64,000 bases of DNA, from positions 576,001 through 640,000 of the forward strand of contig CP084166.1 of NCBI GenBank assembly GCA_021513695.1. The letters run 5' to 3'. Positions 43,313-45,883 of this stretch are shown here, piece by piece (position 1 is the first letter of the stretch; each line of letters begins with the position of its first letter). The position numbers and the translations under genes are program-made. The DNA comes from Candidatus Heimdallarchaeum aukensis (GTDB lineage: Archaea > Asgardarchaeota > Heimdallarchaeia > Heimdallarchaeales > Heimdallarchaeaceae). The notes below the pieces were generated by a model. The model had not been told where the DNA came from and did no database searches. It saw only the letters and a list, made by a program, of their open reading frames with translations.

Positions 43313-45883
43313 ATGTCTTCTAAAGATAAAAAACAATCTTCAGAACTAGAAAAAGCGATATTAGAAGCAAAATCAAGATTACAAAAAGTTGTTTCAAAGA
43401 AAGAAGGAAAATATATAAGAAAAAACGAATTAGAAAATGCGATTAATGAAGCTATTAGGAGTTTAAAACCTGTTTCTGAAGAATTAATTAATAAAAAAAT
43501 GAAAAACAGTGCTTTTAAAGAAGAACTATTAAAAGCAAAGTCTGAACTAAAACAAGTAAAACAAGCAAAGAAGAGAGTAACAAAGAACGAAATGGAATTA
43601 GCTATTAAAGAGGCTATTAAAAATCTAAAACCAATAACTGAAAAAGGAAAAAAACAAATGACTTCAAAAGGAGAACTAGAATTAGCCATTTTAGACGCTT
43701 TTTCTAAACTCATAGAAGTTTCAGAAGAAGAGAAAAACTATGCATTAACTAAAAAAGAACTGGAAATAATAATAAGAGATGCAAAGAGTAAATTGAAAAA
43801 AGTGCCAGGAAAAGAACTTAGGCACGCATTATCTAAAAAAGAGATTGAGCACGAACTAAGAGACCTAAAAAGAAAATTAAAACCTGTTCCAGAACAAGTA
43901 AAAGTTCCAGAACTCTCAGTTAAACAACTTAGAACAGCAATTAAAGAAGCAAAAGTAAGATTAAAACCAGTTCCAGAGAATTTAAAAAGCATAAGTTCTA
44001 TCTCAGTGGGAAGATCAATCAAGAAAGAAGGAGAGAAAATAAAAAGGAAACTTCTTCCAATTCCAGGAGACGCAAAAACTTTTGAAATACAAAATATCGA
44101 ACATATTAAACTCTTTTCTGCAGAAAGATTGGATTTCAAGAAGTTCTTAATAAAACTAGAAAAACAGAAACAACAACCACTACTAAAAATAATAATCAAT
44201 CCAAAAACAAAGTTCTGTAAGATAGAATTAATGAACAAAGATAACCCCACTTCTCCATACAACATTACGGCGGGAGGAGATATTTTAGAATTCACATATA
44301 CTTATCGTTTCTTATTTAAACACGGTTACATAAAAATAGAGAATAACTACCCTCTACTCCTTTCAGATAAACAATGGATTGTGTGGTATCTGAGAGAAAA
44401 AATAGAATTAACTTTCGTGGATATAGCCTTTGCAATGGACGAAACAGTAAGAAACGTGAGAAACTTGTTCAATCAAGCAGAAAAAAGAATAAATCAAATA
44501 CTAGACTTCGTTGTAAATGAAGAGCATTACCAGCTAGTTGCAGCACATGCAATGAAAAGAAAAGGAGTAAGAATACAACAGATTGGAGATACAATAATAG
44601 AGCCAAAAATTACAGAAAAATATCTGATTGAACAACAACAACTAGAAGAGCTAACACATATTGAAGAACTTGAAAAGAAAGTAGAAATACCAAGAGAGTG
44701 GGTAATAAAAACAGCTTATAAAATAGAAACACTAAAGGGAGGATATTATCTGTGGAAAGAGTTTCTAGGAGCACTAAACAAAGATTCCCTGTTGATGATA
44801 GAGAACGACAGCTTACCCCACGAAGAAGAATACTTGATAAACGCAATAGGTTTAGGAGGAGAGATAATTCCTGACATCAAGAGCAACTTCAAAAAACTCA
44901 TAGACATATTCTCAGAAGCTCCAGATGAACTAGTAAAAATAGGAGATACAGCCTTTTTCATGGGTTATATGGATAACATTTATTCTAGCCAATTTTGGAA
45001 TATAAGAAACTTCGTTAAAGGAAACAGGAAAAATTGGAAAAAAGATTTCGTAAAAATAGCAATAAAAGCATATTCAAAAGCTCTAGAAAAAATTAACCCA
45101 GCAGTTTATCCTATAAAGTACGGAGTGCTAAAAAACGATTTAGGAGTGTTCTACTTTTTTCTATCAGAACTAGAGCAAACTAAAAAGAATACTCTAGAAG
45201 CAATCAAAAATATGCAAGAAGCAAAAAATGCATTACCTTTAGAATTCTTTAAAACAAAACATAGCGATATATGCTACAATTTAGGACTAGCCCACTTATT
45301 AATTTCAAAAATAGAAAACAAAGAAGAGAACATAAAACAGGCAATTCTAAATTTCAATTTTGCCCTACAAGGAAGAACATTAAGAATGTACCCTCTAAAA
45401 TACGCGATAACGGAAGTAAATCTAGGAATAGTCTACCAAAAACTGGCAGAAATAGAAGAAACGTCATTAAACTGCACACTAAGTATAGAATCTTATAACA
45501 ACGCTCTACGATCAAACACACTAGACATAATGCCCACAGAAGCAGCAATGATATACAACAACATAGGACTAGCTTATTGCACATTATCAAAAGAACAAGA
45601 AACAGAATACAATATTTCACAAGCATTAATAGTACTAAACGATGCTTTAACAATAAGAAATGAAGCACAGTTCCCAGTTGAATACGCAATAACAACAAGT
45701 ATTTTAGGAAAAGCTTACACAATTTTAGCTACAGTCAAAGAAACAAAAAAGAATTACGAAAAAGCTATATCTGCATTTAACAAAGCAATTAGAATATTTA
45801 TCAAGAAATACGAAGATTTCTATCAAGCTATAATTCATGAAAAGGAGAAAATTGAAGAAAAACTAATAGATATTTCACAATAG
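43313..45883 (+). CDS. Multidomain protein: tandem ~28-aa amphipathic-helix/LKxV repeats, sigma70-region-4-like HTH, C-terminal TPR array
   Basis: 856 aa. GGGGT ribosome-binding site. For the repeats see 43337..44071. HTH-like segment LTFVDIAFAMDETVRNVRNLFNQAEKRI. TPR-like NLGLAH, NLGIVY, NIGLAY and ILGKAY repeats. Confidence 0.8.
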   Translation: MSSKDKKQSSELEKAILEAKSRLQKVVSKKEGKYIRKNELENAINEAIRSLKPVSEELINKKMKNSAFKEELLKAKSELKQVKQAKKRVTKNEMELAIKEAIKNLKPITEKGKKQMTSKGELELAILDAFSKLIEVSEEEKNYALTKKELEIIIRDAKSKLKKVPGKELRHALSKKEIEHELRDLKRKLKPVPEQVKVPELSVKQLRTAIKEAKVRLKPVPENLKSISSISVGRSIKKEGEKIKRKLLPIPGDAKTFEIQNIEHIKLFSAERLDFKKFLIKLEKQKQQPLLKIIINPKTKFCKIELMNKDNPTSPYNITAGGDILEFTYTYRFLFKHGYIKIENNYPLLLSDKQWIVWYLREKIELTFVDIAFAMDETVRNVRNLFNQAEKRINQILDFVVNEEHYQLVAAHAMKRKGVRIQQIGDTIIEPKITEKYLIEQQQLEELTHIEELEKKVEIPREWVIKTAYKIETLKGGYYLWKEFLGALNKDSLLMIENDSLPHEEEYLINAIGLGGEIIPDIKSNFKKLIDIFSEAPDELVKIGDTAFFMGYMDNIYSSQFWNIRNFVKGNRKNWKKDFVKIAIKAYSKALEKINPAVYPIKYGVLKNDLGVFYFFLSELEQTKKNTLEAIKNMQEAKNALPLEFFKTKHSDICYNLGLAHLLISKIENKEENIKQAILNFNFALQGRTLRMYPLKYAITEVNLGIVYQKLAEIEETSLNCTLSIESYNNALRSNTLDIMPTEAAMIYNNIGLAYCTLSKEQETEYNISQALIVLNDALTIRNEAQFPVEYAITTSILGKAYTILATVKETKKNYEKAISAFNKAIRIFIKKYEDFYQAIIHEKEKIEEKLIDISQ
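43337..44071 (+). repeat. Protein-level tandem array (8-9 copies) of a WH2/beta-thymosin-like motif
   Basis: ELEKAILEAKSRLQKV, ELENAINEAIRSLKPV, EELLKAKSELKQV, EMELAIKEAIKNLKPI, ELELAILDAFSKLIEV, ELEIIIRDAKSKLKKV, EIEHELRDLKRKLKPV, QLRTAIKEAKVRLKPV, and a weaker KIKRKLLPI. Confidence 0.7.

Follow-up and report, generated by a model that had tools for sequence, protein, structure and literature searches.

A conserved array of 28-residue, WH2-like units in a Heimdallarchaeal HTH-TPR protein as a candidate actin-docking region

The gene analyzed here (43313-45883, + strand, 856-aa ORF) lies in a 64,000-nucleotide stretch of the Candidatus Heimdallarchaeum aukensis genome (contig CP084166.1, positions 576,001 to 640,000; hereafter the window) and was studied together with 16 homologues, their alignment and an AlphaFold (AF2) model. 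Its N-terminal region (43337-44071, residues 9-253) consists of eight 28-aa units and one degenerate junction unit. This array probably docks a partner protein; actin is, tentatively, the single most likely partner, and the protein is a candidate rather than a demonstrated actin nucleator.

Each unit is built in the same order, from a helix with the consensus K-x-D-L-E-x-A-I-x-D-A-x-x-x, an invariant Leu, any residue, Pro or Lys, Val or Ile, an acidic stretch, and a linker of fixed length and variable sequence. The eight copies listed in an earlier sequence-only reading, with their period of about 28 aa, are all present on the + strand. Unit cores were placed at 43337-43390 (unit 1, aa 9-26, SSELEKAILEAKSRLQKV; predicted helix 11-28), 43421-43474 (unit 2, aa 37-54, KNELENAINEAIRSLKPV; helix 37-50, stopping right before Leu51, and a match to the ELM-style WH2 pattern described below), 43505-43558 (unit 3, aa 65-82, NSAFKEELLKAKSELKQV; 26 aa rather than 28 from unit 4), 43583-43636 (unit 4, aa 91-108, KNEMELAIKEAIKNLKPI; helix 91-103), 43667-43720 (unit 5, aa 119-136, KGELELAILDAFSKLIEV; helix 119-131, tetrad with no basic residue), 43751-43804 (unit 6, aa 147-164, KKELEIIIRDAKSKLKKV; helix 147-160, the most WH2/thymosin-like unit), 43835-43888 (unit 7, aa 175-192, KKEIEHELRDLKRKLKPV) and 43919-43972 (unit 8, aa 203-220, VKQLRTAIKEAKVRLKPV; helix 203-215). 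The ninth copy that had been thought possible was found at 44006-44071 (aa 232-253, VGRSIKKEGEKIKRKLLPIPGD, ending IKRKLLPIPGD), but it is degenerate and is part of the most conserved segment, where the array passes into the following domain; its columns I243-D253 are invariant, and the IKRxLLPIPxD motif is unchanged across orthologues. Antisense ORFs at 43276-43713 and 43738-44295 were set aside as mirror artefacts of K/E-rich coding.

The L-x-x-[VI] tetrads of units 1 to 8 start at residues 23, 51, 79, 105, 133, 161, 189 and 217, giving spacings of 28, 28, 26, 28, 28, 28 and 28. The lag-28 BLOSUM62 autocorrelation of aa 3-232 was 1.00, against a highest value of 0.31 in 2000 shuffles scored at their maximum over all lags (mean -0.01, sd 0.08), and the 28-aa period is far beyond chance. 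Mean identity between units is 51% for nucleotides and 32% for amino acids, and TRF detected no 84-nt period in the repeat DNA, in agreement with the earlier remark that the DNA copies have diverged. A caution that the region is K/E-rich is correct as to composition (K 21%, E 13.5%), but this composition by itself does not yield the repeat pattern. The description of most copies as carrying Pro at tetrad position 3 did not hold up: half of the present units (4 of 8) have such a residue, and 63/120 do family-wide.

All homologues are from Heimdallarchaeota, where the family occurs in a single clade only, with Ca. Heimdallarchaeum endolithica as the nearest genome; members scored E 1e-26 to 1e-122 in local hmmsearch/phmmer searches. 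Repeat statistics were computed on 120 units from about 15 orthologues. The earlier reading had named conservation of the tetrad and period as a check, and at about 46% identity the tetrad Leu, the Val/Ile and the period are indeed conserved: about 15 orthologues keep the 28-aa period in unit after unit, and across 15 of them 92 of 105 spacings are exactly 28 aa, with 4 more at 56. Invariant or nearly invariant positions include Leu12 (120/120 units), Leu1 (109/120), Ile5 (103/120) and Val/Ile15 (106/120; 107/120 with Thr allowed), and Lys occupies position -2 in 97/120. The tetrad itself had been likened to LKKT/V; the Leu and the Val/Ile are kept as this likeness demands, but two basic residues occur in just 22/120 units (at least one in 70/120), and position 2 is acidic in 13/120. 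Copy number ranges from 8 to 11 across orthologues and changes by whole units only, and individual unit subtypes are preserved at about 46% identity. Residues 1-235 compared with the H. endolithica copy gave a dN/dS of 0.084 (dS 0.85), and the repeat units are under purifying selection.

These data bear on a rival view in which the array would serve only as an inert, charged and flexible spacer or as a solubility tail, its helices having no specific partner and its WH2 likeness arising by coincidence from K/E-rich amphipathic helices. The K/E-rich composition, low AF2 confidence and variation in copy number would suit a spacer, as would the disrupted gene copy in Ca. H. endolithica PR6, where the gene must be dispensable because that copy is disrupted, and the fact that ribosomal protein S5 (IRKAIEDAKKNLIEVP) matches the unit profile as well as any PDB entry. 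A true spacer, however, tolerates indels and substitutions, and the low dN/dS, the invariance of positions such as Leu12, the fixed 28-residue spacing and the retention of each unit's subtype across orthologues make this explanation unlikely.

AF2, run on a shallow alignment of 15 sequences, returned pLDDT values of 30-62 over the array and one isolated, unpacked helix per unit in all five models. The predicted helices are 13-14 residues long, rather than three turns as first described, and are N-capped, amphipathic and terminated just before the invariant Leu. Their hydrophobic moment is 0.32, mean hydrophobicity 0.06 and net charge about 0 (mean net charge per whole unit, +0.8), and both amphipathicity and hydrophobicity fall within the range of known WH2 helices. 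On this model the first 250 residues are predicted to form an intrinsically disordered multivalent array. The coiled coil that had been raised as an alternative was checked, and AlphaFold gives separate low-confidence helices with no continuous coiled coil; the Pro residues and the AF2 model speak against coiled-coil and solenoid folds, which were rejected, as was a leucine-rich repeat (LRR), for lack of an LxL/Asn core. That such a folded repeat exists and was overlooked by AlphaFold with so few sequences is very improbable: the strict period and a heptad-like hydrophobic stripe at unit positions 1, 5, 8, 12 and 15 (Leu1, Ile5 and Ala8 conserved) speak for it, but about half of the units have a Pro after the helix (10 Pro in aa 1-252), each 28 residues hold a single short helix and highly charged linkers, and the hydrophobicity is too low for a core. 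Similarly little credence is given to the helices acting as amphipathic membrane anchors that tether the regulator. Their hydrophobic moment and the very basic N-terminal tail of orthologues in the 926-aa clade would favor this, but their low hydrophobicity, near absence of aromatic residues, neutral net charge and conserved Asp beside the hydrophobic stripe are unlike known lipid-binding helices; membrane helices were rejected for their hydrophobicity and charge.

Resemblance to WH2 and beta-thymosin motifs was assessed by several routes, using a home-made set of WH2 sequences and a home-made ELM-style pattern (after LIG_Actin_WH2), the pattern being checked on 8 known WH2 sequences. Alignment of the unit profile to 18 WH2 sequences with hhalign gave P=3.6e-4 (probability 37%), a value that would not survive a search of ~20,000 families; WH2 had, moreover, been preselected for its resemblance. 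The alignment needed a single gap and set Leu1, Ile5 and Leu12 against the Leu, Ile and LKKV Leu of WH2. Column shuffling, repeated 600 times, never produced so high a score, and reversed profiles scored 5.4. The ELM-style pattern matched 6 of the 8 units and found 7 sites in aa 1-235 (the 6 units and one overlapping extra), compared with a mean of 0.78 and at most 6 in 5000 composition-matched shuffles, although it is promiscuous, matching unrelated Heimdallarchaeal ORF segments 1.6 times per 1000 aa. The structural features expected of WH2 are also predicted by AF2, namely a short amphipathic helix and disorder when free. Profile searches, in contrast, did not place the array in either family: Pfam WH2 (PF02205) and Thymosin (PF01290) gave no match at E<=10 to the whole protein, aa 1-266, six single units or a consensus double unit; a home-made WH2 HMM scored the ORF at 3.3 bits, fourth of 167 ORF segments in a six-frame scan of the window; and the repeat profile found no WH2 chain in the PDB at E<=10, its best matches being unrelated (kinesin, ribosomal protein S5). 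SxIP, nebulin, RPEL (RPxxxEL core) and GoLoco motifs were searched for in the protein and were absent. The earlier interpretation is partly supported: the WH2 resemblance exceeds mere composition, and the units fit WH2 grammar at a level short of homology.

The thymosin side of the proposal is narrower. Unit 6 (DAKSKLKKV) is nearly identical to the FDKSKLKKT of thymosin-b4, and thymosin-b4, ciboulot and actobindin share with the array a helix that abuts an LKKT-type tetrad and a strict repeat period. The similarity is nonetheless limited to the tetrad, with hhalign against the thymosin/ciboulot subset aligning only 11 columns around it (P=0.11). The full beta-thymosin module of about 38 residues, with LKKTET and a second, C-terminal pointed-end helix, is absent, the unit here being 28 aa with one helix.

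Parallels are also found in the tandem WH2 proteins Spire, Cobl and VopL/VopF. Like the array, these have a disordered region with a series of short motifs, each made of an amphipathic helix, a Leu-basic/Pro-x-Val tetrad and an acidic tail, at a period of about 28-33 residues (strictly fixed in the array), and profile-profile alignment runs in the expected register. Spire tetrads also include Pro at position 3 (LRPV, LNPV). They differ in that no homology to the array is detectable, the helix-to-Leu linker of the array is one residue longer, it has 8-11 copies rather than 3-4, it is fused to HTH and TPR domains rather than to KIND/FYVE or dimerization domains, and its host is archaeal and its actin binding putative. 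To our knowledge, no WH2 protein carries a sigma4-type HTH. The only WH2-like element described in Asgard archaea is the LKKT motif of two-domain gelsolins, and Heimdallarchaeal and Thorarchaeal gelsolins use a Leu-basic-basic-Val/Thr sequence on actin (PMC9433394; PMC7444086), the LKKT-type motif of a Heimdallarchaeal gelsolin contacting actin in a crystal structure (PMC9433394). That element is a single tetrad in the linker that joins two gelsolin domains, in contrast to tandem helix-plus-tetrad modules. The host's eukaryote-like actin is the leading candidate partner because the units share the grammar of WH2-type actin binding and its helix-to-Leu spacing.

Actin occurs across Asgard archaea, whereas the family does not, and this, like the dispensability of the gene in Ca. 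H. endolithica PR6, counts against an actin partner. The supposition that the host is an Asgard archaeon with actin, profilin and gelsolin was supported, since the homologues are all Heimdallarchaeal and this clade is reported to encode all three (PMC8813620). Gene neighborhood gave the actin link no support: actin, profilin and gelsolin genes were absent from the vicinity of the gene in every locus examined, and no actin-related family was found among window ORFs of >=150 aa, a size above that of a profilin or single-domain gelsolin. Scanning the window for Rfam families and tRNAs gave no hits. Most orthologues have a GTPase-PAS-GTPase cluster directly upstream on the same strand, seen in at least 8 loci; its genes have diverged to 63% and 49% identity. 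These GTPases are Arf-like by Pfam and not G-alpha; a Rag-like reading was rejected on this assignment, and their C-terminal extensions had no match. The gene lies between TPR genes, both in the window (42299-42883 and 46018-48018) and in a second locus (L006).

The disordered array leads into a small alpha/beta domain, followed by an HTH of the sigma4/LuxR type and, after a linker, a TPR superhelix. The fused HTH-like segment and TPR platform noted earlier are both real. The alpha/beta domain (44072-44332, +, aa 254-340; AF2 pLDDT 85-95) has no recognized fold relative, and its sequence matched nothing in Pfam or the PDB. With the middle domain as query, phmmer over 1.84 billion representatives returned, beyond its own family, only two small stand-alone relatives (P0018 and P0019) and a spurious Calx-beta repeat protein (P0017). 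The sigma-70 region 4/LuxR-type HTH (44366-44515, +, aa 352-401) is predicted as a four-helix fold that superposes on sigma-70 region 4; it was recognized by fold comparison only, the middle-domain profile giving noise against PDB sequences. The TPR superhelix (44870-45880, +, aa ~520-856; AF2 pLDDT 80-95) was identified by Pfam TPR_1 (28.2 bits, cut-off 27.8) and by Foldseek (E 1.7e-7 to 1e-6 against consensus TPR, Pins and LGN), and its predicted structure is nearest to the peptide-binding TPRs of LGN/Pins.

This architecture allows for docking of a non-actin partner within the same signaling module, such as the TPR groove, the neighboring TPR proteins or the Arf-like GTPases, and we regard this as a possible, somewhat doubtful, alternative. 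The units could, for example, be ligands of the protein's own LGN-like TPR groove and cause autoinhibition, on the model of LGN/Pins, whose tandem GoLoco helices both bind G-alpha and fold back onto its TPRs. The structural proximity to LGN/Pins, the flanking TPR genes and the upstream GTPase-PAS-GTPase cluster are in its favor, and LGN/Pins likewise joins an eight-repeat TPR superhelix of the same type to tandem short helical motifs in one chain with a GTPase link. The domain order is reversed here, however, with the HTH inserted between the two parts, the GTPases are of another class and no GoLoco-like sequence is present; 8-11 even sites exceed the need of one TPR groove or GTPase pair, AF2 places no unit confidently on the TPR domain, and the window's own clade retains the array without the GTPase cluster. 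A further proposal, by analogy with nebulin on actin and tau on microtubules, is that the array would act as a ruler along, or bind to the side of, a different periodic target (ESCRT-III, FtsZ/tubulin-type filaments, or DNA beside the HTH). The strictly conserved spacing, whole-unit copy changes and adjoining DNA-binding HTH are compatible with it, but it is quite improbable: binding to the DNA backbone is disfavored because the units are near neutral, nebulin-type motifs are absent, no filament genes were found near the gene, and no specific polymer is indicated by any evidence.

Under the preferred reading, each unit of the array would fold as it docks a single copy of a repeated or polymeric partner. 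The protein would be a signaling regulator coupled to actin rather than the dedicated nucleator or sequesterer first proposed, because the array shares its chain with an HTH of the sigma4/LuxR type and an LGN-like TPR domain and because in most orthologues the gene follows an Arf-like GTPase-PAS-GTPase cluster; fusion to a sigma4-type HTH better suits a regulator. Actin occupancy might control or tether the HTH/TPR part, following RPEL/MRTF logic, or the TPR part might take a GTPase signal while the array recruits actin, following WASP-family logic. If the array binds actin, its closest functional analogy would be the RPEL arrays of MRTF/Phactr, tandem short helical actin-binding motifs that link the G-actin level to a transcription regulator, although there is no homology between the two and archaea have no nucleus for shuttling. 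HTH-plus-TPR regulators, ECF sigma region 4 and LuxR-GerE proteins gave no sequence-level family match (Pfam, PDB profile search) and none of them is known to have an N-terminal disordered repeat array; RNPP regulators differ further in their XRE-type HTH, and MalT/LuxR types in carrying the HTH at the C-terminus.

The full proposal, that a tandem WH2-type actin-binding array, evolved or inherited, is tied to an HTH, a TPR and an Arf-like GTPase/PAS module, is put forward as a speculative possibility; if it held, the protein could conceivably be an actin assembly factor under GTPase control or a transcription regulator that senses actin, in either case a counterpart of WASP or MRTF that predates eukaryotes. 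Characterized Asgard actin regulators in the literature searched are profilins and gelsolin/cofilin-type proteins only, and no Asgard actin nucleator or GTPase-to-actin signaling link was reported there. Asgard actin regulators have been successfully assayed on rabbit actin, so the candidate is cheap to test. Should the proposal be true, this would be the first free-standing tandem WH2-type array outside eukaryotes and their bacterial pathogens. Actin binding by the array would mean that WH2 actin recognition, and multivalent motif arrays on disordered chains, were already present in the archaeal lineage closest to eukaryotes, and that GTPase signaling, actin and transcription converge in one protein. 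If the partner is not actin, the protein would still be an unusually eukaryote-like prokaryotic regulator, with a conserved short-linear-motif array in a long disordered region.

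The repeat array was located in residues 9-253 (43337-44071, + strand) of an 856-aa ORF at 43313-45883 (+), which contains all eight peptide copies listed in the sequence-only reading of this DNA. Each unit comprises an amphipathic helix, a Leu-x-(Pro/Lys)-Val/Ile tetrad and an acidic linker; tetrads of the form L-x-x-[VI] begin at residues 23, 51, 79, 105, 133, 161, 189 and 217, giving spacings of 28, 28, 26, 28, 28, 28 and 28. K/E-rich composition does not account for the periodicity: the lag-28 BLOSUM62 autocorrelation of the array was 1.00, against a maximum over all lags that averaged -0.01 (sd 0.08, highest 0.31) in 2000 shuffles. 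The copies are old at the DNA level and had rightly been described as diverged: identity between them was 51% for nucleotides and 32% for amino acids, and no 84-nt period was detected in the array DNA by TRF. A suspected ninth copy (residues ~232-253, IKRKLLPIPGD) is a unit, but a degenerate one that forms the invariant junction into the next domain. Antisense ORFs at 43276-43713 (-) and 43738-44295 (-), of 145 and 185 aa, were rejected as genes, being F/S/L-rich mirrors of the K/E-rich coding strand.

Among 5.8 billion proteins searched, 16 homologues were found, and every source name given for them was Heimdallarchaeaceae or Heimdallarchaeota. One was 90% identical, one 99% (a shorter protein of 625 aa), one 55%, and most others about 46% (870-940 aa); their database names were "hypothetical protein", "tetratricopeptide repeat protein" and, for one JGI entry, [quoted passage not shown]. 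Nine loci were identified in a scan covering 185,579 species genomes; seven are titled Heimdallarchaeota and two "uncultured archaeon", and one belongs to the complete Ca. Heimdallarchaeum endolithica PR6 genome (89% identity). The array is borne on an HTH/TPR protein that is confined to Heimdallarchaeota. Actin, profilin and gelsolin are reported across the known Asgard phyla by the H. endolithica genome paper (PMC8813620), so the supposition of an Asgard host equipped with all three is supported, and the objection that the host lacks actin does not apply. The PR6 orthologue (L008 6001-10358, CP084167.1) is a pseudogene, with a TAA stop in frame at the codon that reads His449 in the window and a break caused by a ~1.75-kb insertion (L008 7543-9287); the insertion contains an ORF of 504 aa, TnpB-like by its Cas12f1-like TNB domain, and is probably an IS200/IS605-type element.

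Unit statistics were compiled from 120 units taken from 15 orthologues and numbered from the first helix Leu. Position 12 is Leu in all 120, and the other preferred residues are Ser/Thr at the N-cap, position -3 (75/120), Lys at -2 (97/120), Asp/Glu at 0 (95/120), Leu at 1 (109/120), Ile at 5 (103/120), Asp/Glu at 7 (105/120), Ala/Val at 8 (100/120), Pro or Lys at 14 (63/120 and 32/120) and Val/Ile at 15 (106/120), followed by acidic residues at positions 17-19 and a linker that contains an [HY]-A-L element. Of 105 spacings, 92 measure exactly 28 residues and four more measure 56, and copy number varies between orthologues by whole units. Conservation of tetrad and period was borne out for Leu12, Val/Ile15 and the spacing; a dibasic tetrad is present in only 22/120 units. 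Two subtypes, A-type (LExAIxD[AV]IxSLxPVS) and B-type (LQxEIRDAKxGLKKV), each occupy the same array positions in all orthologues, which implies that unit divergence preceded species divergence and that each unit has been retained since. Compared with the H. endolithica copy, dN/dS was 0.084 (at dS 0.85) over residues 1-235 and 0.034 over the middle domain; the array is under purifying selection. That it is an inert spacer is unlikely, as such a role fits poorly with this selection and with the fixed spacing.

AlphaFold2, run with a 15-sequence alignment, assigned pLDDT values of 30-62 to residues 1-252 and predicted isolated helices, one per unit (37-50, 91-103, 119-131, 147-160 and 203-215), each of which starts at the N-cap and stops immediately ahead of the invariant Leu. 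Neither helix packing nor a continuous coiled coil was found in the model of the array, the latter being the outcome that had been named in advance as counting against WH2-like motifs. With a hydrophobic moment of 0.32, the helices show moderate amphipathicity; their mean hydrophobicity is low (0.06), their net charge is about zero, and aromatic residues are almost absent. Solenoid, coiled-coil and membrane-helix models were rejected as being at odds with these properties and with the isolation of the helices; we consider it very improbable that the array is a folded repeat missed by prediction, and give equally little credence to membrane helices despite the amphipathicity. The array is a conserved, selected and disordered run of 28-residue helix-plus-LxPV units, and fits a chain of fold-upon-binding motifs.

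The unit is WH2-like in motif grammar, with an N-capped amphipathic helix, a Leu directly after it, Val/Ile three positions on and an acidic tail; as in WH2 (GRxALL, ARSxLL), a basic residue lies three positions before the first Leu. An ELM-style WH2 pattern, verified against eight known WH2s, matched 6/8 target units and occurred seven times in residues 1-235, whereas composition-matched shuffles averaged 0.78 and never reached seven; its background in unrelated ORF segments was 1.6 per 1000 aa. Alignment of the unit profile to 18 WH2 sequences with hhalign gave a probability of 37% and P=3.6e-4, which is equivalent to an E of about 7 at Pfam library size and concerns a family picked beforehand for its likeness. 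The register placed unit Leu1, Ile5 and Leu12 opposite the Leu, Ile and LKKV Leu of WH2, interrupted by just one gap of one residue, and the score of 14.9 was equalled by 0 of 300+300 column-shuffled controls (means 6.4-6.7, maxima 13.8 and 14.1; reversed profiles 5.4). The signal stems from WASP/WAVE-type (P=1.1e-3) and Spire (P=2.9e-3) WH2, while the match to beta-thymosin was confined to the tetrad (P=0.11). Pfam WH2 and Thymosin were absent at E<=10 for the whole protein, single units and a double unit; a WH2 HMM scored 3.3 bits on the ORF, and the repeat profile retrieved no WH2 chain from the PDB at E<=10, the best hits being kinesin and ribosomal protein S5 (E 0.5-4). The proposal of WH2/beta-thymosin-like motifs therefore stands as to WH2 grammar, but not as to Pfam membership or thymosin likeness beyond the tetrad. 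These comparisons do not place the unit in the WH2 family; its resemblance to WH2 is nonetheless real and non-random, and describes a WH2-like form that falls short of proving a WH2 domain or actin binding.

The accompanying "HTH-like segment and TPR platform" were both recovered. Residues 254-340 form a small alpha/beta domain that is confident in the predicted model and has no recognised relatives, residues 352-401 a sigma-70 region 4/LuxR-type HTH (Foldseek probability about 1.0), and residues ~520-856 a TPR superhelix whose nearest matches are consensus TPR and the peptide-binding TPRs of Pins/LGN. Few proteins carry the alpha/beta-plus-HTH module: among 1.84 billion representatives, phmmer returned only the family and two stand-alone ~240-aa proteins. 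These two (P0018 and P0019; 238 and 244 aa) carry the module without the repeat array or TPR domain, and one has a sub-threshold Sigma70_r4_2 match.

In the ~926-aa clade, at every sufficiently long locus (at least eight), the family gene directly follows, on the same strand, genes for two Arf-like GTPases (the first of 299 aa, the second of 312-320 aa) that flank one for a PAS protein (430-441 aa) (L001 6652-9863; also L003, L004, L005 and L010-L016). This order is kept despite divergence of the cluster genes to 63% and 49% identity, which indicates operon-like conservation and links the family with GTPase/PAS signalling. Both GTPases end in a C-terminal extension of about 120 aa that had no Pfam match, and the PAS protein carries a C-terminal region without assignment. 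The linkage is absent from the family gene's locus in the window's own clade. In the window itself the gene has as neighbours an ABC-2 transporter, a TPR gene transcribed divergently, and transporters. A 64-aa ORF (43001-43195, +) with a weak transposase HTH match (HTH_Tnp_1, E 0.0028) separates the target gene from the divergent TPR gene; it may be an IS remnant and a possible cause of the lost synteny. Downstream, a 666-aa TPR protein (46018-48018, +) weakly matches longin over its last ~166 residues (Fuz_longin_1, E 0.016), a tail that could be a GTPase-regulator-like module. No actin-related families were found among ORFs of at least 150 aa in the 64-kb window. Some 10 kb upstream are two adjacent small Ras/Roc-like GTPase genes (31975-32547 and 32629-33195, +; 190 and 188 aa), of which the first matches Gtr1_RagA as well (E 2.7e-7). 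Elsewhere, a type I restriction-modification system (4117-8847; HsdR of 1051 aa, HsdS fragment) adjoins an integrase-core fragment (rve_3), and large putative surface proteins (59680-63624, 54577-56934 and 42-1466, all +) include NosD/beta-helix proteins and one of 1314 aa that bears FG-GAP and bacterial TSP3 repeats; the L006 orthologue, too, has NosD/beta-helix genes beside it.

Each unit would act as a docking site, and the fixed spacing and high copy number suggest that its partner is likewise a repeated or polymeric one. The best supported single candidate, if a tentative one, is actin, because the unit has a suitable grammar, actin is present in the host clade, and Heimdallarchaeal gelsolin contacts actin through an LKKT-type motif in a crystal structure (PMC9433394). 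The main rival, modelled on LGN/Pins with its GoLoco array, is that the helices may be ligands of the protein's own TPR groove or of the operon GTPases, which we hold to be possible though doubtful; binding to another polymer or to DNA is improbable. The dedicated actin nucleator or sequesterer originally proposed was not favoured, since a signalling regulator is the better reading of the HTH, TPR domain and GTPase/PAS cluster. Were actin bound, the closest analogies would be MRTF, in which G-actin sensing by RPEL motifs serves a transcription factor, and WASP-type factors, which turn a GTPase signal into actin recruitment. In the literature searched, the only WH2-like element described for Asgard archaea was a lone tetrad within the linker that joins the domains of two-domain gelsolins. 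The WH2-like array, sigma4-type HTH, LGN-like TPR and GTPase/PAS operon are a new combination of known kinds of parts. The protein is, rather than a demonstrated actin regulator, a strong and cheaply testable candidate for one.
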